IMG/VR virus record: IMGVR_UViG_2695420539_000017
Strand: one strand, 5' to 3'
Origin: a virus
Taxonomy: Duplodnaviria; Heunggongvirae; Uroviricota; Caudoviricetes
DNA: 14,342 nt
Position numbers and translations under genes: made by a program
Shown: positions 2,176 to 13,415 of the stretch, in pieces
Position numbering within the stretch: position 1 is the first letter of the stretch
Layout: the number at the start of each line of letters is the position of its first letter
Notes under the pieces: generated by a model
The model's database searches: none
What the model was told of the DNA's origin: nothing
The model's input: only the letters and a program-made list of their open reading frames with translations

Positions 2176-2680
2176 ACAGGCTCGTGAGGCTCTGGATGCC
2201 TGGATATGTCGACCAGGAATGACACAGGAGCAGGCGACGATATTAATCACTGAAGCATTCTGGGCTTTGAAAGAGCGCCCGAACATCGATGTTCAGCGTG
2301 TCACAGATGAAGGTGGCGCGGTTGATCAGCGAGCGCTTGGCGTTAATCGAGTGAAGATATTCGAACGCTGGAAGGCTATCGACACCAGGGATAAGCGTGA
2401 AAAGTTCACGGCGCTAGTGCCTGCGATTATGGAGGCTATCCGGATTAGTGATTTCAGGTTGTATCGTGAGATCAGTGATGGAAAAAGTATTACGTACATG
2501 ATCGCCGGGTTAAATAAAGAATATGGCGATGTGGTGGAATCCGGACTGCTTTTTGCAGATCCTGCCGTTGTAGATCGTGAAACTGACGAACTTATAGAAA
2601 AAGCAATTGCTTTCAAGCTTGCGTATCGACAGCAATACCAACAAAAAGCTGGATGGAATTATGAGTCTTCTTTTTGCTGA
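2159..2680 (+). CDS. Hypothetical phage early protein, 173 aa, in the cII/YdaT position downstream of the cro-like gene; function not established
   Basis: Complete ORF overlapping the dicC 3' end by 17 nt and the next gene's start by 20 nt, indicating operon coupling. Family assignment is a guess from position only. Confidence 0.6.
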   Translation: MKITPEQAREALDAWICRPGMTQEQATILITEAFWALKERPNIDVQRVTDEGGAVDQRALGVNRVKIFERWKAIDTRDKREKFTALVPAIMEAIRISDFRLYREISDGKSITYMIAGLNKEYGDVVESGLLFADPAVVDRETDELIEKAIAFKLAYRQQYQQKAGWNYESSFC

Positions 2681-3626
2681 ACGCCCACTGGTTATAAACA
2701 CGCAGCTGGCAATGAAAATTGGCTTAAACGAAGCCATTGTTTTGCAACAACTGCACTACTGGTTGAGAGATACCAACTCCGGCATGGAATGTGATGGTGT
2801 TCGCTGGATTTATAACACAACGGAACAATGGCTGGAACAGTTCCCATTCTGGTCAGAGTCAACGTTAAAGCGCGCGTTTGCAAGTCTGAAAACGCTGGGG
2901 CTTTTGCGTTGTGAAAAGCTCAATAAATCAAAGCGCGATATGACCAATTTCTACACGATCAACTACGGGAGCGAGCTTTTAGATGGTGGCAAATTGAGCG
3001 AATCCATCGGTTTAAAATGCGCCGCTCCATCAGGTCAAAATGACACGATGGAAGAGGTCAAAATGAAACGCTCCATTGGTTCAAAACGACTCAATGTCAT
3101 CGGGTCAAAATGGCCTGATGATCTTACAGAGAATACAACAGAGATTACTACAGAGAATAAAAAGACTTCTCGTCCGGAAGCTTCGCAACCGGACCCGCAG
3201 ACGGTTGAACAGGATTTTTTAACCCGACACCCTGACGCGGTTGTGTTCAGTGCGAAAAAACGCCAGTGGGGCAGCCAGGAAGATTTGGCGTGTGCGCAGT
3301 GGATCTGGGGGCGAATCGTGAGTCTTTACGAGCAGGCCGCCAGCGATGATGGCGAGATTTCGCGACCGAAAGAACCCAACTGGACCGCATGGGCCAACGA
3401 CGTGCGCACAATGCGGATGCTGGATGGCAGAACTCACAGACAAATTTGTGAAATGTTTGGTCGGGTGCAGCGGGATCCATTCTGGGTAAAAAATATCATG
3501 AGTCCGTCAAAGCTTCGCGAAAAATGGGATGAACTGGTTATCCGCCTGGGGCGTTCGTCTGTACAGCGTTGTGTGAATCATATTTCTGAGCCGGATACCG
3601 AAATTCCGCCGGGCTTCAGGGGGTAA
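2661..3626 (+). CDS. Lambda O-like replication initiator (start chosen at ATG 2661; track ORF begins at TTG 2607)
   Basis: Complete ORF with N-terminal HTH-like region (...LNEAIVLQQLHYWL...TLKRAFASLKTLGLL...). Contains an iteron array followed by an AT-rich tract in its central part, the arrangement of ori-lambda inside gene O. Confidence 0.7.
   Translation: MSLLFAERPLVINTQLAMKIGLNEAIVLQQLHYWLRDTNSGMECDGVRWIYNTTEQWLEQFPFWSESTLKRAFASLKTLGLLRCEKLNKSKRDMTNFYTINYGSELLDGGKLSESIGLKCAAPSGQNDTMEEVKMKRSIGSKRLNVIGSKWPDDLTENTTEITTENKKTSRPEASQPDPQTVEQDFLTRHPDAVVFSAKKRQWGSQEDLACAQWIWGRIVSLYEQAASDDGEISRPKEPNWTAWANDVRTMRMLDGRTHRQICEMFGRVQRDPFWVKNIMSPSKLREKWDELVIRLGRSSVQRCVNHISEPDTEIPPGFRG
3009..3170 (+). 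repeat. Candidate phage replication origin: five iterons plus adjacent AT-rich tract
   Basis: GGT(C/T)(T)AAAA(T/C)G repeats start at 3009, 3033, 3056, 3078 and 3103 (22-25 bp spacing), followed by AT-rich 3121-3170 (TTACAGAGAATACAACAGAGATTACTACAGAGAATAAAAAGA). Confidence 0.65.
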
Positions 3627-3666
3627 GTGTTAATTTCTGGTCATGAGGTAATTTTCAGGAGGGCTT

Positions 3667-5263
<1,597 letters not shown>

Positions 5264-5593
5264 TGGAGCACCTGTGTTGTTCTGAGGTGAGCATATCACC
5301 TCTGTTCAGGTGGCCAAATTCAGTGTGCCACTACAAAGTGATGAGATTAAAGTTTATTAGTTCAGATATTGATTGGCTCTTTTGTGGAGTAGGGTAGAGT
5401 TAGTGTGTTTGTCTGCTTGGTGCCAGCAGCGGATATGTTTAACAACAGAAAGCATTCAGCATGGTTAGTGGATTTGCAAAGTGGATTAGGATTTGAGAAA
5501 CTTTGATGAAGTTGTAAAGCTTGTTTCTATAAAAATAGAAATTTAACTAATAGTTAAACACACCTCCAGCTTCATTGAAAAGGATTATTAGCT

Positions 5594-6493
5594 ATGATTG
5601 ATCCACTTATTAGAAACTTACAGAGTGATATTGCACTACTCCAGCTTTATATCGCGCAACGCAAACAGGCAGGCTTTCATGACATGGAAAGAATAATTGA
5701 GTCATTGACCATCTTTATGTTTCGCGCGCTGAAAATGGGTGAACTGGTAAACATGAATCAGATTAAAGTTAATTTTCCCGCCATTGATTTAGCTGATAAT
5801 AAAAACATGATAGCAGTTCAAGTTACTACGAATGCAAGTCCAGCAAAAATTAAAAAAACTATCGAATCTTTTGAGAAAATAAATGAAATAGGAGAGAGTC
5901 TGAAAGATAAATACTCTACTTTATATATTTTTGGTTTTTGTAAAGCCTCAAGATACCTAACTCCAAGTTATTGTAAAATAATCGACCCCAGCTATTTCGT
6001 GAATGAACTTTGCGATAAAGCAGATGAAGATATGGTCCAGGATATGATTGACGCCATTCGACGCCATCATGATTATACATCATTACATCCATGGAGTGAT
6101 AAAGATTCACTCGAAATTATACTCAATATTATTAATCGCAATGCAATAAAACATCGGATGAGTTGCGAAGGCAGTCTGTCTGATATGCTCACTGGTTTAA
6201 AAGAAATTAATGAAGTAATTACAAAAGGAACAATTCAACGTAAGCAACGTTCAAAATCGATATCTGACTTCAAAGATCAAAGCATGGTGAAATTTATGAG
6301 AGGTGTAATGGATGATTTGTCTGTTATTCAAGCCATAGTGAACAAATCTAAAGTTAACCAAGGTGATATGGTTTATATAAGCCATGAAGATATGATTAAT
6401 ATTGATAAATTAAAAGCTAAAATAGCAAGTGATTCATCAGAGATTGCAAGGCTAAATAATATTGATATAACACTAAATGTTGTTGATTTATAA
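5594..6493 (+). CDS. Hypothetical 299-aa protein of the AT-rich island, with an RNxxxH (HEPN-like) motif; candidate toxin/abortive-infection-type effector
   Basis: Complete AT-rich ORF with AAGGA upstream of ATG 5594. Motif RNAIKH at residues 182-187 (nt 6137-6154); N-terminal motif NFPAIDLADNKNMIAVQVTT. Domain assignment not verified by search. Confidence 0.7.
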   Translation: MIDPLIRNLQSDIALLQLYIAQRKQAGFHDMERIIESLTIFMFRALKMGELVNMNQIKVNFPAIDLADNKNMIAVQVTTNASPAKIKKTIESFEKINEIGESLKDKYSTLYIFGFCKASRYLTPSYCKIIDPSYFVNELCDKADEDMVQDMIDAIRRHHDYTSLHPWSDKDSLEIILNIINRNAIKHRMSCEGSLSDMLTGLKEINEVITKGTIQRKQRSKSISDFKDQSMVKFMRGVMDDLSVIQAIVNKSKVNQGDMVYISHEDMINIDKLKAKIASDSSEIARLNNIDITLNVVDL

Positions 6494-6807
6494 TTGTCGA
6501 TTTAGCAAAACAGAGAATGCTTTGAAAGTTTCACCGAGAAATATTTATTGTGAACCTCCTTATTGTTTATCGACTTTTACTCTCCGCTCATTGCAGTACT
6601 GTCGGAGAAGGCTACTATGTACAAGAAGCAGCTAACATAAGCGAGCATCACTATTGATATTAGGAAGAGTATATAAAAACTTCATGCTGAACCTTACAAA
6701 AGTAGGTAAACCGGCAATGGCCTAAGTGGCAGGGTCATGTTGATCCGGCACTGCCGAGCTAATAATTAACAAGCAAATCACTCTTTCTAATAATTTGTTG
6801 AAATAAA

Positions 6808-7461
6808 CTAAATATGTATATGTTTACCAACAACCACATATGAACTACCTGCTTTGCTCCATGATTTTATTATTTCTAAATTATTATCTGAGCATATTTT
6901 ACTTACAGTATCCACATCTAATAAACCATAGTAGAAAGCATTGCGAGAGTTTTGGTATATATACCCATGCAAATGTTTAATACCGCTCTCGTACCTCTTG
7001 AAATAAGAACTTTTGTATTGATTGACAATCAGTGCTTCACCATCACTCTTTAATAATTCTCTAATCGCACTGAGGACTTTGTGAATTGTGGATTCACATG
7101 GAATTGCGGAAAGCACGTTTGCGCAAAGTATGAAATCATAATGATTTGTTATTTTATCTATATTTTCATAAGAAACAATATTAGCATTCTTATAGTTATT
7201 TATCACGTAATCTGGAATCGTGGTTTGTACACCTCTGATAATTTGCACTCTTTCTAGTTGTCTTCTGGAATCTAAAAATGTCACAGTTTCAAATTTATTT
7301 ACTAATTGTTCTGAATATCTAAGTTTTCCACATCCAAAATCAAGGGCATTGCCATTTTTATTAGTGCTTTCAATCTGTTTACAGAGATAGTTAGATGGCA
7401 TAGTGTGCGGTTTCGCTGCATTTTCTGAACGTATGTTTATTCCATTTATTTTGTAATTCAA
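6808..7461 (-). CDS. Class I SAM-dependent methyltransferase (small-molecule/RNA type), about 217 aa
   Basis: Motif I LDFGCGKL, acidic FLD after beta-2, and a YDFILCANVLSAIP segment; no DPPY/NPPW or PCQ/ENV DNA-methyltransferase motifs. Start set at TTG 7461 (GAGG 5 nt upstream) rather than track TTG 7467, which abuts the SD. Confidence 0.75.
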   Translation of the reverse strand: MNYKINGINIRSENAAKPHTMPSNYLCKQIESTNKNGNALDFGCGKLRYSEQLVNKFETVTFLDSRRQLERVQIIRGVQTTIPDYVINNYKNANIVSYENIDKITNHYDFILCANVLSAIPCESTIHKVLSAIRELLKSDGEALIVNQYKSSYFKRYESGIKHLHGYIYQNSRNAFYYGLLDVDTVSKICSDNNLEIIKSWSKAGSSYVVVGKHIHI

Positions 7462-7473
7462 AATCAACCTCGT

Positions 7474-8169
7474 TTAAAAAATATTGTTATTGTTAAAGAA
7501 TTCTTTTATTTTGCTATCAGGTATTTGTCTTACTTGGCTTTCTGTTCTTGGTTTAACTGATGCTATGAAAATAAGGAAGTCAAATGCGACAAGAGAAATA
7601 ATCCACAACCAAAGATTAATTAAAGAGCCAGTAACAGAGAATATATTTGTTAATTTGGCGATACTTATTATTAAAATAGTAACAAATGCGATTACTGTAT
7701 GTTCAAAGAAAACCCAAAAGTAATAAACTTTGTTCCAGAAAAGTTCAACGTAATGTTTGTCTTTTAACTCTTTAACTTCTGGGTAATACAGTTTACTCAT
7801 TACCTTGTGAGATTCATCAGTAGTTAATTTTCTCGTAACGCCTGCAATTTTTGCTAATGGTTTAATAATTAAATGACTATCCCACATCTTCCTTATTCCA
7901 ATAATTTTTGCTACATTATTATGTAGATCTAAAGCTCCACTAATTACTGACCAAAAAACTGAAGATGCAATTGGTAATATGCCAAAGGTTAATATCCATT
8001 TAATAAATTCCTCGTAGTCTTTAACGGGGGGGATATACTTGGCATTAATGCCAACCAATGGCATGTAGCCATAAATGACTAATGATAGGTAAAATATAAA
8101 TGTAGTAATAAAAGTCGCCTTATGGAGCATAGGCAACATTTCATTATAACTCTTTGGTGGTTCTAACAT
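7474..8169 (-). CDS. Integral membrane protein (about 4 predicted TM helices), 231 aa, unknown function
   Basis: Hydrophobic stretches (ATFITTFIFYLSLVIYGYMPLV, FIKWILTFGILPIASSVFWSVISGAL, VYYFWVFFEHTVIAFVTILIISIAKL, LINLWLWIISLVAFDFLIFIASV). Start set at ATG 8169 (GGAGAG upstream). Its stop at 7476-7474 lies 12 nt before the methyltransferase start. Confidence 0.7.
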   Translation of the reverse strand: MLEPPKSYNEMLPMLHKATFITTFIFYLSLVIYGYMPLVGINAKYIPPVKDYEEFIKWILTFGILPIASSVFWSVISGALDLHNNVAKIIGIRKMWDSHLIIKPLAKIAGVTRKLTTDESHKVMSKLYYPEVKELKDKHYVELFWNKVYYFWVFFEHTVIAFVTILIISIAKLTNIFSVTGSLINLWLWIISLVAFDFLIFIASVKPRTESQVRQIPDSKIKEFFNNNNIF

Positions 8170-8610
8170 TTTACTCTCCAAACACTCAAAAAAAAGCTAA
8201 TCTTCTATAATAACGAAATTCAGCTGGCACAATTAAAGATTAATTGCCACCAATTTCTTGATTTTATAATTTTATCTAAATGTTTTTGATTAATCTAGTC
8301 CTAAAAGAAACCTACTGCATAAATATTTATGCTGATGACCCACTCCCTGTTCGTTAACACATAGCAACGTTAGTAATGCATCCTAAGTGATCAATATTTT
8401 TGCTAGCTTCATCTGCTCGCTCAAAGGGAACTATAATGTTGGCTTGCGTGTGACTTGGCATGTTTAAAGAAGTGCTGGTGGTGACTGGTTGCTGTTTTCC
8501 ATTTCCACAGAACAAAATCATAGAAACTATACCCAGTAGTTGTATTGAATCACTGACGAGACAGCCTCATATTTATCAGGACTGGTGTACGTCCAATACA
8601 GGAGGTTGTG

Positions 8611-8700
8611 GTGCTGGTTCTCAAATGTGCGCTGGCTATTGCTGCTGTAATGGCAATTTATTGTCTTGCTGTTGTTCTTATGGATCACCTTTCTGATTGA
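8611..8700 (+). CDS. Candidate small hydrophobic protein (29 aa): possible type I toxin-like or small membrane peptide
   Basis: Perfect AGGAGG at 8600-8605, 5 nt before GTG 8611; product M/VLVLKCALAIAAVMAIYCLAVVLMDHLSD. Codon third positions are T-rich in this frame, unlike the overlapping Cys-rich 78-aa track ORF frame. Consensus -10 TATAAT at 8433-8438 upstream. Confidence 0.35.
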   Translation: MLVLKCALAIAAVMAIYCLAVVLMDHLSD

Positions 8701-8707
8701 TTTCATA

Positions 8708-8736
8708 TTGGCGAGGTAACGGTAGTTAAGTAGAAT
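8708..8736 (+). promoter_or_regulatory. Candidate hok promoter (-35 TTGGCG 8708-8713, 17-bp spacer, -10 TAGAAT 8731-8736)
   Basis: Placed just upstream of a 5' leader that begins GGGTGCTTGAGGCTATCTGCCTC (8743-), resembling the 5' end of plasmid hok mRNA as I recall it. Confidence 0.4.
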
Positions 8737-8911
8737 TGCTGCGGGTGCTTGAGGCTATCTGCCTCGGGCATCAACACCAAAGGCAGATAGAGAAAAGCCC
8801 CAGTTAACATTACGCGTCCGGCAAGACGCTTAACATTAATCTGAGGCCATATCTATGCTCTACACACGTAGGTTAGCCTCTTACGTGCCGAAAGGCAAGG
8901 AGAAGCAGGCT

Positions 8912-9067
8912 ATGAAGCAGCAAAAGGCGATGTTAATCGCCCTGATCGTCATCTGTTTAACCGTCATAGTGACGACACTGGTAACGAGGAAAGACCTCTG
9001 CGAGGTACGAATCCGAACCGGCCAGACGGAGGTCGCTGTCTTCACAGCTTACGAACCTGAGGAGTAA
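8912..9067 (+). CDS. hokD: Hok-family type I toxin (HokD/RelF-like), 51 aa
   Basis: MKQQKAMLIALIVICLTVIVTTLVTRKDLCEVRIRTGQTEVAVFTAYEPEE matches HokD as I recall it; AAGGAG 9 nt upstream of ATG 8912. The track ORF 8855..9067 is an in-frame upstream extension. Confidence 0.9.
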   Translation: MKQQKAMLIALIVICLTVIVTTLVTRKDLCEVRIRTGQTEVAVFTAYEPEE

Positions 9068-9137
9068 GAGACCCGGCGAGGGAGAAATCCCTCGCCACCT
9101 CTGATGTGGCAGGCATCCTCAACGCACCCGCACTTAA

Positions 9138-9160
9138 CCCGCTTCGGCGGGTTTTTGTTT
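9138..9160 (+). terminator. Rho-independent terminator downstream of hok
   Basis: CCCGC-TTCG-GCGGG hairpin followed by TTTTTGTTTTT. A 9-bp perfect stem with GAAA loop (9074-9095) lies just upstream. Confidence 0.7.
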
Positions 9161-9175
9161 TTATTTTCAACGCGT

Positions 9176-9205
9176 TTGAAGTTCTGGACGGCGCCGGAAT
9201 AGAAT
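9176..9205 (+). promoter_or_regulatory. Candidate promoter for rem (-35 TTGAAG 9176-9181, 18-bp spacer, -10 TAGAAT 9200-9205)
   Basis: Hexamers and spacing read directly from the sequence; no experimental support. Confidence 0.35.
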
Positions 9206-9283
9206 CAAAAATACTTAAGTAGCGCGCAGGGATAAGAGGGATGGTCCCTTAAAGGGGAGAGCTAATTATCCGGAAGGATTCTG

Positions 9284-9535
9284 ATGATGAACATCGAAGA
9301 ACTGCGTAAAATTTTTTGTGAAGATGGCCTCTATGCTGTGTGCGTTGAAAATGGAAATCTTGTTAGTCATTACCGCATTATGTGTTTGCGAAAGAATGGG
9401 GCTGCGTTAATTAATTTTGTGGATGGTCGAGTGACAGACGGATTTATCTTGCGCGAAGGTGAGTTTGTCACTTCATTACAGGCACTGAAAGAGATCGGAA
9501 TAAAAGCAGGCTTTTCAGCTTTTGCAGAAGAATAA
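9284..9535 (+). CDS. rem: Rem-like small prophage protein, 83 aa
   Basis: Complete ORF (MMNIEELRKIFCEDGLYAVCVENGNL...) with GGAAGG ribosome-binding site; sits next to hokD as in Qin. Confidence 0.8.
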   Translation: MMNIEELRKIFCEDGLYAVCVENGNLVSHYRIMCLRKNGAALINFVDGRVTDGFILREGEFVTSLQALKEIGIKAGFSAFAEE

Positions 9536-9601
9536 ACTCATCTACAATCTTGCGCGGGGCTGAACTCCCGCTGAGTAACACCGTGCCACCGGAGAAAACC
9601 G

Positions 9602-9880
9602 ATGGCACGCAACGTAAAATATTACAATTCTGATAATTCGCCCGTTCTTGCCTGCACGCACGAGCGGTATTCTCACGCATTCAAGTCTGAATGGTTCCAA
9701 CACCCTCCATGTACTGAAGAGCAGGCTGAATGGACAATTCAGTGTTACCGCAGGCGCGGATACGAGGTTAAGAAAGCCCTTAGTCTCGACTACCGTCACT
9801 GGATAATCTCCGTCAGGCTTCCTTACTCTGAACGCCCACCGCGTCCGTCTCGCACATTCCAGCAACGCATCTGGAGGTAA
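9602..9880 (+). CDS. Hypothetical phage protein, 92 aa
   Basis: Complete ORF with GGAGA upstream of ATG 9602; its stop is 1 nt before the YdfU-like start. No family recognised. Confidence 0.55.
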   Translation: MARNVKYYNSDNSPVLACTHERYSHAFKSEWFQHPPCTEEQAEWTIQCYRRRGYEVKKALSLDYRHWIISVRLPYSERPPRPSRTFQQRIWR

Positions 9881-9881
9881 C

Positions 9882-10931
9882 GTGCGGGTATTACTTCGAC
9901 CTGTTCTGGTACCGGAACTCGGGCTGGTGATCGTTAAGCCGGGCCGTGAATCCATGCCAGTATTCCACAATACCCGGGTATTGATGGAGCCGGAACCGAA
10001 AAGCATGCGTAATCTGCCGTCCGGGGTCGTTCCTGCCGTTCGCCAGCCGCTGGTGGAAGACAAAACATTGCTGCCGTTTTTCAGTAACGCACGGGTGATT
10101 CGTGCTGCTGGTGGTGCTGGTGCATTGTCTGACTGGCTGTTGCGCCATATTAAATCCTGCCAGTGGCCACACGGCGATTATCATCACAGCGAAACTGTCA
10201 TTCACCGTTATGGTACCGGCGCAATGGTGTTGTGCTGGCACTGCGACAACCAGCTGCGTGACCAGACATCCGAATCACTCGAGCAACTTGCTCATCAAAA
10301 CCTGTCAGCATGGATGATTGACGTCATCGGTCACGCAATAAGCGGTACGCAGGAGCGTGAATTATCTTTGGCTGAATTATCCTGGTGGGCGGTCCGCAAT
10401 CAGGTGGCGGACGCGCTACCGGAAGCGGTATTACGTCGTTCGCTGGGGGGGCGTGCGGAAAAAATCCGCTCAATGTACCGTGAAAGCGACATCGTGCCGG
10501 GAGAGCAGACCGCCACCAGCATACTGAAGCAGCGCACAAAAAATCTTGCGCCGTTGCTTCACACCCACCAGCCACAGAACCCAGCACAGGAAAAGGCGGT
10601 GGTCAGCATTACCGTTGATCCGGAGTCTCCGGAATCTTTCATGAGGCGACCTAAACGTCGCCGTTGGGTAAATGAGAAATATACGAGCTGGGTGAAGACA
10701 CAGCCGTGTGCGTGTTGTGGTCAGCCAGCCGACGATCCCCATCACCTGATTGGTCACGGTCAGGGAGGGATGGGAACAAAATCCCACGATATTTTCACGC
10801 TACCGCTGTGTCGGGAGCATCACAACGAGCTTCATGCGGATCCGCTGGCGTTCGAAGAAAAGCATGGTTCCCAGATTGATTTAATTTTTCGTTTTCTTGA
10901 TCACGCCTTTGCAACCGGCGTGCTCGGGTAA
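9882..10931 (+). CDS. ydfU: DUF968 / YdfU-like protein (349 aa) with C-terminal HNH-like Cys/His motif
   Basis: GTG start with GGAGG 6 nt upstream; length matches Qin YdfU (349 aa). C-terminal CACCGQPADDPHHLIGHG...SHDIFTLPLCREHHNELH (about 10706-10836). Confidence 0.8.
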   Translation: MRVLLRPVLVPELGLVIVKPGRESMPVFHNTRVLMEPEPKSMRNLPSGVVPAVRQPLVEDKTLLPFFSNARVIRAAGGAGALSDWLLRHIKSCQWPHGDYHHSETVIHRYGTGAMVLCWHCDNQLRDQTSESLEQLAHQNLSAWMIDVIGHAISGTQERELSLAELSWWAVRNQVADALPEAVLRRSLGGRAEKIRSMYRESDIVPGEQTATSILKQRTKNLAPLLHTHQPQNPAQEKAVVSITVDPESPESFMRRPKRRRWVNEKYTSWVKTQPCACCGQPADDPHHLIGHGQGGMGTKSHDIFTLPLCREHHNELHADPLAFEEKHGSQIDLIFRFLDHAFATGVLG

Positions 10932-12199: not shown

Positions 12200-12275
12200 G
12201 GCCCTTTAGCTCAGTGGTGAGAGCGAGCGACTCATAATCGCCAGGCCGCTGGTTCAAATCCAGCAAGGGCCACCA
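12200..12275 (+). tRNA. ileZ: tRNA-Ile2 type (anticodon CAU, ileX/ileZ-like; could formally be annotated Met)
   Basis: Cloverleaf: acceptor GGCCCTT/AAGGGCC, D-stem GCTC, anticodon loop CTCATAA, T-arm GCTGG-TTCAAAT-CCAGC, encoded CCA. Close to E. coli ileX from memory. Gene symbol by analogy with Stx phages. Confidence 0.8.
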
Positions 12276-12282
12276 TCACATA

Positions 12283-12359
12283 CCGCCATTAGCTCATCGG
12301 GATAGAACGCCAGCCTTCGAAGCTGGTTTCGCGGGGTTCGAGTCTCCGATGGCGGTCCA
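12283..12359 (+). tRNA. argN: tRNA-Arg (anticodon UCG by my fold)
   Basis: Anticodon stem CCAGC/GCTGG with loop CTTCGAA; T-loop TTCGAGT; acceptor CCGCCAT/ATGGCGG; encoded CCA. One D-stem mismatch and a C1-G72 pair are atypical. Symbol by positional analogy only. Confidence 0.65.
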
Positions 12360-12372
12360 TTATCGGTATTCT

Positions 12373-12449
12373 GCGTTTTTAGCTCAGCCGGACAGAGCAA
12401 TTGCCTTCTAAGCAATCGGTCACTGGTTCGAACCCAGTACAACGCACCA
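12373..12449 (+). tRNA. argO: tRNA-Arg (anticodon UCU, reads AGA)
   Basis: Anticodon stem ATTGC/GCAAT with loop CTTCTAA; T-arm ACTGG-TTCGAAC-CCAGT; encoded CCA; one acceptor-stem mismatch. Symbol by positional analogy only. Confidence 0.7.
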
Positions 12450-13215: not shown

Positions 13216-13415
13216 TTTTTTTGTTTGCTGTTTATTAAAAACACTTCTGCATGGTGAATCCCCCTGTGCGGTGGGGCAATCAGCAAGAAGGAATATGGGG
13301 TAATCGCGGATTCAGGTGCTGATACTGAATTCACCGGGAGGCACCCGGCACCATGCTTTGCCACAAAAGTGTTATTTCTGTTTTTCTCAAACTATCATCG
13401 TTATCCCTTTATTTT

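Follow-up and report, generated by a model that had tools for sequence, protein, structure and literature searches.

Hok mRNAs are defined by the pairing of their two ends, i.e., of a tac element with an fbi element, and the mechanism is summarised in PMC9841398. Among described systems, the closest to the locus presented here is hokW-sokW of Sakai prophage 5 (Sp5) and of phage 933W in E. coli O157:H7, which behaves experimentally as a toxin and its RNA antitoxin (PMC8621323). On RecA-dependent prophage induction, Sok RNA disappears and Hok accumulates (PMC8621323). HokW is made after treatment with mitomycin C, and deletion of the locus halves the phage yield (PMC8621323). In E. coli K-12, hokD of the Qin prophage is co-transcribed with relBE (PMC5120126).

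The DNA analysed here (hereafter the window, 14,342 nucleotides) is the IMG/VR record IMGVR_UViG_2695420539_000017 and corresponds to a Qin/Rac-like lambdoid prophage. Its genes are arranged in the order dicB, dicF, ydfC, ydfB, dicA, dicC, ydaT and replication genes, followed by a SMEK-domain gene, two minus-strand genes, hokD, rem, DUF968, rusA, Q and three tRNAs. An initial annotation had suggested that this copy of hokD, having an apparently full-length leader, may be an autonomous hok/sok-type module. This proposal is supported, since the leader, the tac/fbi pairing, the predicted Sok RNA with its promoter and the position of the K-12 breakpoint all agree with it. [quoted passage not shown]

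Toxin gene, leader and predicted Sok RNA

The sequence elements of the locus, their integrity and conservation, the predicted tac/fbi and tac/ucb pairings and the covariation of tac with fbi were computed here. Everything pointed out in the initial annotation was found at the place given there. The features are the following:

8708-8736, plus strand: hok mRNA promoter (-35 TTGGCG at 8708-8713, 17-nt spacer, -10 TAGAAT at 8731-8736)
8743-9161, plus strand: hok mRNA as expected at full length (~419 nt), starting at the predicted +1 and ending in the U-tract of the terminator
8743-8754, plus strand: tac (translational activator), GGGUGCUUGAGG, the 5'-terminal element of the mRNA, aligning with the tac of 58 hok loci
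8751-8765, plus strand: local 5-bp hairpin GAGGC-UAUCU-GCCUC (GAGGC at 8751-8755, GCCTC at 8761-8765), read directly
about 8790-8864, minus strand: predicted Sok antisense RNA, ~74 nt, its ends placed from the promoter position and the U-tract
8795-8801, plus strand: ucb (upstream complementary box), AAGCCCC, forming 7 bp with tac in the truncated fold
8813-8828, no strand assigned: GC-rich insertion of 16 nt, CGCGUCCGGCAAGACG, relative to the Rfam consensus in the cmscan alignment
8843-8846, plus strand: mok Shine-Dalgarno, GAGG, 8 nt 5' of the mok ATG
8855-9067, plus strand: mok open reading frame, 70 codons, 213 nt, in the same frame as hok, from the ORF list
8870-8898, minus strand: putative Sok promoter (-35 TTGCCT at 8898->8893, 17-nt spacer, -10 TAACCT at 8875->8870)
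8898-8902, plus strand: hok Shine-Dalgarno, AGGAG, read from the sequence and overlapping the Sok -35 on the opposite strand
8912-9067, plus strand: hok toxin gene, HokD type, 51 aa, MKQQKAMLIALIVICLTVIVTTLVTRKDLCEVRIRTGQTEVAVFTAYEPEE
9075-9096, plus strand: hairpin of the 3' UTR (stem of 9 bp, GAAA loop), GGCGAGGGA-GAAA-TCCCTCGCC, present in the fold
9117-9129, plus strand: fbi (fold-back inhibition) element, CCUCAACGCACCC, pairing with tac
9136-9163, plus strand: intrinsic terminator AACCCGC-UUCG-GCGGGUU with its U-run, stem-loop at 9136-9153, from the terminator scan

The toxin differs from HokD of K-12 by a single substitution, A22T, and matches the HOK_GEF profile (Pfam PF01848) over its whole length (positions 1-42 of 42) with 84 bits for a cut-off of 22. 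The match to the NCBIfam Hok subfamily was strong (E = 6e-14), yet stayed under the curated cut-off, and RefSeq annotates hokD at near-identical loci. Codon 22 (8975-8977) is ACA (Thr) here and GCA (Ala) in K-12 and in ~99% of the phage-borne copies, so that A22T is a rare change; it lies inside the transmembrane helix. The Tyr46 codon, TAC (9050-9052), is followed by G at 9053 and the TACG context is thus kept; in hokC, hokD and hokE this codon is a site of A-to-I mRNA editing by TadA, which converts Tyr to Cys (PMC5630033). The AAGGAG motif at the hok ribosome-binding site is kept family-wide, partly by construction, the motif being within the search pattern.

The in-frame ATG at 8855, to which the initial annotation had attributed the mok position, does open a reading frame of 70 codons with a GAGG at the appropriate place upstream. 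In the HokD-type clade, Mok consists of Hok with 19 extra N-terminal residues. Relative to hok, mok is thus in frame 0 in the window and its clade, whereas it is in frame +1 in the R1 type (IncF locus), and an ATG-initiated mok is missing at the aligned position in many other family members. Among 93 phage-borne copies, the mok ATG is invariant and the GAGG is altered in one variant only, represented by one sequence. Phage records name the same 213-nt frame MokW or MokW-like, and HokW or HokD labels are also found.

Upstream of the toxin gene, the leader had been described as hok-type and apparently full-length, which was borne out by the search of Rfam: RF01794 matched 8743-8917 on the plus strand from end to end (model positions 1-157 of 157) with 114 bits, for a gathering score of 59 bits, and E = 8e-26. 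This family is titled 'sok', but its model represents the sense strand of the hok leader. The sole departure of note from the model is the GC-rich insertion at 8813-8828. The leader also aligns with the R1-type hok/sok locus of IncF, as had been anticipated, the two having in common the boxes GCTTGAGG..TCTGCCTC, AAAGCCCC and AGCCTCTTAC...GCAAGGAGAAG. The AAAGCCCC box is almost invariant in the family alignment. The promoter thought plausible in the first reading was recovered by a consensus scan; it is sigma-70-like, with 9 of 12 consensus matches, its -10 sits 6 nt upstream of the predicted +1 (~8743), and GGGTGCTTGAGGCTATCTGCCTC lies directly downstream of it. The segment GCTTGAGGCTATCTGCCTC, located at 8747-8765, includes the local hairpin. 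At the other end of the transcript, both the GAAA-loop hairpin and the terminator stem-loop of the structured 3' end were found, the stem of the former showing compensatory changes relative to a hokW-type copy.

On the minus strand, the candidate Sok promoter occupies the same position as that of R1 Sok, overlapping the hok Shine-Dalgarno, and the block from 8870 to 8960 that contains it is identical to the primer-verified hokW-sokW copy. In the latter system, the 'pro-less' primers YO-421/YO-422 replace exactly TAACCTA, and the antitoxin activity is abolished (PMC8621323). In the same study, the sokW probe YO-592 is the equivalent of 8833-8862 and the hokW probe YO-597 is identical to 8901->8872 (PMC8621323). 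A generic promoter scan did not flag the Sok promoter because its -10 matches only 3 of the 6 consensus positions. The RNA expected from this promoter would begin with ~15 unpaired nt, continue into a long hairpin and finish in a U-rich stretch; its minimum free energy (MFE) is -32.1 kcal/mol (z = -5.1). The GC-rich insertion, kept in the phage HokD/HokW clade, would form the tip of the Sok hairpin with a 6-bp stem. The minus strand is predicted to encode a Sok-like antisense RNA together with its convergent promoter.

K-12 junction, frequency and conservation

When compared by BLAST with 10 kb of Qin of K-12, the window is homologous from 7 to 2438 and then from 8898 to 10931. The breakpoint between relE and hokD in K-12 therefore corresponds to position 8898, 14 nt before the hokD ATG and inside the Sok -35. 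A three-way alignment of the window, the R1-type IncF locus and the K-12 relE-hokD region showed that K-12 shares nothing upstream of AGGAGAAGCAGGCTATG. As a consequence, K-12 is without the hok promoter, tac, ucb, mok, the Sok target and the Sok -10. This is in line with the earlier description of K-12 hokD as a truncated form co-transcribed with relBE, the junction alignment showing that the leader is lost upstream of 8898. The reported absence of relBE upstream of the present copy also holds: neither relB nor relE is found within the window, homology to K-12 Qin resumes only at 8898, and the K-12-type relBEF layout (relE stop, hokD within ~70 nt and no hok leader) does not occur here. A simple insertion of relBE in K-12 was considered and rejected, the leader not being kept beyond relBE in the 10-kb Qin segment; the K-12 state is therefore a replacement or a deletion. 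The ~6.5 kb of the window at 2439-8897 are without counterpart in this segment and carry a ydaT-like gene, replication genes, DUF977, the SMEK-domain gene, a minus-strand methyltransferase gene, a membrane protein gene and the hok leader, while the K-12 equivalent is ~2.1 kb with ydfW, flxA, ydfV and relBE.

The leader and hok segment (8743-8960, presence being scored at a coverage of at least 80%) was found in 4024 of 5426 complete E. coli genomes (74%), with a median of 2 and a maximum of 9 places per genome. The K-12 relE-hokD junction is less common than this full-length form and was found in 1166 of the 5426 genomes (21%). Elsewhere in the window, Rfam models identified DicF sRNA at 360-411 on the minus strand (76.7 bits) and STnc100 at 13220-13392 on the plus strand (100.8 bits), and three tRNA genes lie downstream of Q at 12200-12446 on the plus strand (Ile, Arg and Arg in related genomes). 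Matches of this kind are usual in lambdoid prophages of the Qin/Rac-like and Stx types.

Conservation was assessed on 93 unique phage-borne copies from IMG/VR. The module appears as a sharply bounded conserved block, from about 8730 to about 9155, between variable flanks; none of the regulatory elements is missing and IS insertions are absent from the sample, the low variability at 8874-8905 being partly forced by the search pattern.

Within this otherwise near-invariant transcript, positions 8846-8869 constitute a hotspot of variability among the 93 copies. The stretch spans the spacer from the mok Shine-Dalgarno to the ATG and the first mok codons, which is also the predicted 5' tail of Sok, and exists as at least five discrete sequence types, the window carrying the commonest. 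These types may mark Sok specificity classes, or the stretch may just be the least constrained one. When copies from the same genome were compared, their types differed in two of three pairs and were identical in the third, too few pairs to decide. Immediately upstream of the module, a hydrophobic ORF of 30 aa, VVLVLKCALAIAAVMAIYCLAVVLMDHLSD, occupies 8608/8611-8700 on the plus strand, with a GTG at 8608 or 8611 preceded by a strong Shine-Dalgarno, AGGAGG (8600-8605), and stops 8 nt short of the hok -35. All 14 homologous flanks retain it uninterrupted, with conservative substitutions (86-100% nucleotide identity), whereas the overlapping ORFs at 8527-8706 (minus strand), 8460-8696 (plus strand) and 8354-8521 (minus strand) have stops or lost starts in several flanks. 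The small ORFs at 8354-8706 gave no match in Pfam or NCBIfam; the 30-aa ORF occurs in four phage records and is annotated on the plus strand in none of the four. It is conceivable, though rather doubtful, that the types at 8846-8869 reflect diversifying selection on Sok/hok specificity and, separately, that the 30-aa ORF encodes a hitherto undescribed small membrane protein with a link to the module. If so, specificity classes would stop cross-neutralisation among the 2-10 hok/sok modules that reside on prophages of one E. coli genome.

Folding and covariation of the transcript

The 419-nt transcript (8743-9161) folds with an MFE of -173.8 kcal/mol (z = -7.7 relative to shuffled sequences); both this fold and the Rfam match of the leader are far beyond chance. 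In the MFE fold as well as in the centroid fold, tac and fbi form a helix of 12 bp with one bulged C, which bears out the 5'-3' pairing that a fold analysis was expected to reveal. When the transcript was cut in silico at 9117, tac (8743-8750) was predicted to pair instead with the AAGCCCC of ucb. The textbook pairing between ucb and the mok Shine-Dalgarno was not exactly seen in the MFE fold, where the region of the latter is partly paired with 9103-9110 in the 3' UTR. The GAGGC/GCCTC hairpin pointed out at the start of the leader is present in the sequence; however, it is missing from the MFE fold, in which 8755-8764 pairs with 8781-8790. It is probably the transient co-transcriptional 'metastable' 5' hairpin of R1 hok mRNA (Nagel et al. 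1999).

The tac/fbi helix was then compared across genera. Candidate loci were collected by a pattern scan of GTDB genomes, a Hok-like ORF being required downstream before the leaders were aligned; this filter removed many chance matches in unrelated phyla, and one further false positive was discarded by hand. The resulting set comprises 58 hok loci from Escherichia, Photorhabdus, Serratia, Erwinia, Pantoea and others, for which the best duplex between tac and the 3' UTR was computed. The mean duplex energy was -20.4 kcal/mol for cognate tac/fbi pairs, versus -16.7 kcal/mol for non-cognate ones. Indeed, the two elements covary across the 58 loci. This is illustrated by compensating variant pairs such as GGGUGCUCUGGAU with GAUCCAnGAGCACCC, GGGCGCUUGAGA with UCUCAAGCGCCC, GGGUGCUUAGGG with CCUUAAGCACCC, and GGCGCUU with AAGCGCC. 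The distance from the stop codon to fbi is 42-60 nt in almost every one of the 58 loci, and 49 nt in the window. Inside the phage-borne HokD/HokW clade (93 unique IMG/VR copies), no tac/fbi covariation was found, tac being invariant, and the clade is uninformative on this point for that reason. Several Photorhabdus and Serratia genomes (L128, L134, L157 and L242) carry 2-4 tandem hok/sok units spaced ~0.5-1 kb apart.

Proposed mechanism, possible roles and known systems

Transcription, processing, Sok action and toxicity of the module would be expected by homology with the characterised systems. According to this analogy, the weak promoter at 8708-8736 would produce a stable mRNA of ~419 nt. 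In this molecule, the computed clamping of tac to fbi would, as in R1, result in a closed mRNA, translationally inert and refractory to Sok binding. Slow trimming of the 3' end, presumed from R1, would remove fbi, and tac is predicted to move to ucb; the mok ribosome-binding site could then open, and translation of hok would be coupled to that of mok, again by reference to R1. Meanwhile, the convergent promoter in the hok ribosome-binding region would yield a short, unstable Sok RNA (about 8863->8790), whose 5' tail may pair with the start of mok, thereby blocking mok and hence hok, and marking the duplex for RNase III. Once the supply of Sok stops, Hok would be made and, judging from its homologs, would depolarise the inner membrane.

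A module that is structurally intact could nevertheless be physiologically silent, i.e., a selfish hitch-hiker of the prophage that is never naturally activated. Such silence has been reported, several chromosomal hok loci being inactive for post-segregational killing in the summary of Pedersen and Gerdes (1999) given by a preprint (bioRxiv 10.1101/2025.08.07.668861), and the hok promoter, like the Sok -10, matches the consensus weakly. However, the 420-nt transcript is strongly conserved amid variable flanks in 93 phage copies devoid of IS insertions, and the 90%-identical hokW-sokW has a phenotype, with HokW made after mitomycin C and a phage yield halved by the deletion (PMC8621323), which makes a silent module very improbable. 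It is also unlikely, to a slightly lesser degree, that Hok is expressed mainly by read-through from the early-right operon, the leader elements mattering less. The hok gene and the dicC-replication-rem-Q early genes do share a strand, production of HokW needs RecA-dependent induction, and hokD of K-12 is read through from relBE (PMC5120126). Yet two genes of the minus strand (6808-8181) intervene between hok and the plus-strand genes upstream, and tac/fbi covariation requires a defined 5' end. Besides, the beginning of the conserved block coincides with the -10 and the tac +1, a sign that the mRNA's own 5' end is of importance.

If the module is active, its main role may be to retain the prophage, by killing cells that lose it, or to keep other phages out through abortive infection, and not the help in lysis and release that has been suggested for hokW-sokW; we regard this as a serious possibility, somewhat short of an even chance. 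Indeed, hok/sok of R1 stabilises plasmids by post-segregational killing and lowers the plating of T4 (reviewed in PMC8621323), and hok is about four-fold enriched in prophages (bioRxiv 10.1101/2025.08.07.668861). Moreover, the present prophage resembles the defective Qin/Rac type (dicB, dicF, dicA), to which help in release would be useless. Against this stand the sole direct experiment on the subtype, which gave a positive effect on phage release (PMC8621323), and the fact that hok loci are without association with defence systems. The sequence itself holds nothing that separates these roles.

The value of the present description lies mainly in annotation. RefSeq marks the toxin only ('hokD') and leaves out mok, Sok and the regulatory RNA elements, and therefore a reader with K-12 in mind could mistake the full-length form for an unusual one. 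In fact, the full-length form is the majority in E. coli and K-12 is the exception. A specific published account of 'sokD', or of full-length hokD in non-K-12 strains, was not found in the literature searched. For the biology of hok/sok, the locus brings no novelty, the variability of the Sok tail and the small upstream ORF being minor leads.

Compared with hokD (relF) of K-12 Qin, the present locus has the same toxin ORF (apart from codon 22), 3' UTR, fbi, terminator (identical in K-12) and downstream rem-ydfU, whereas K-12 has relBE in place of the leader and co-transcribes hokD with it. It follows hok/sok of R1/IncF (parB) in its general layout and presumed logic of regulation, with tac/fbi, ucb, mok, the conserved AGCCUCUUAC box and, opposite the hok ribosome-binding site and overlapping it, a putative convergent Sok promoter. 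It differs from the R1 system in its toxin, the divergence being about that of HokW from R1 Hok (44% identity, PMC8621323); moreover, R1 has mok in the +1 frame, is without the 16-nt insertion in the Sok hairpin, and is carried by a plasmid and not by a prophage. The likeness is greatest with hokW-sokW, which occupies the same niche in the lambdoid nin region (PMC8621323, Takada et al. 2021) and has ~90% identity across the mRNA, rising to 100% at 8870-8960, the stretch with the putative Sok promoter and the hok ribosome-binding site. In both loci, tac and fbi are the same, the Sok hairpin carries the 16-nt extension and mok is an in-frame ORF of 70 codons. They differ at the C-terminus of Hok (...VFTAYEPEE here versus ...VFVDYESEK in HokW), in the type of the Sok 5' tail and mok start (CCATATCTATGCTCTACACACG here versus CTCAATCCATGCTGAACACATG) and in the terminator. 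Thus, the autonomous full-length module is of an already known kind, the same as hokW-sokW of Sp5 (PMC8621323).
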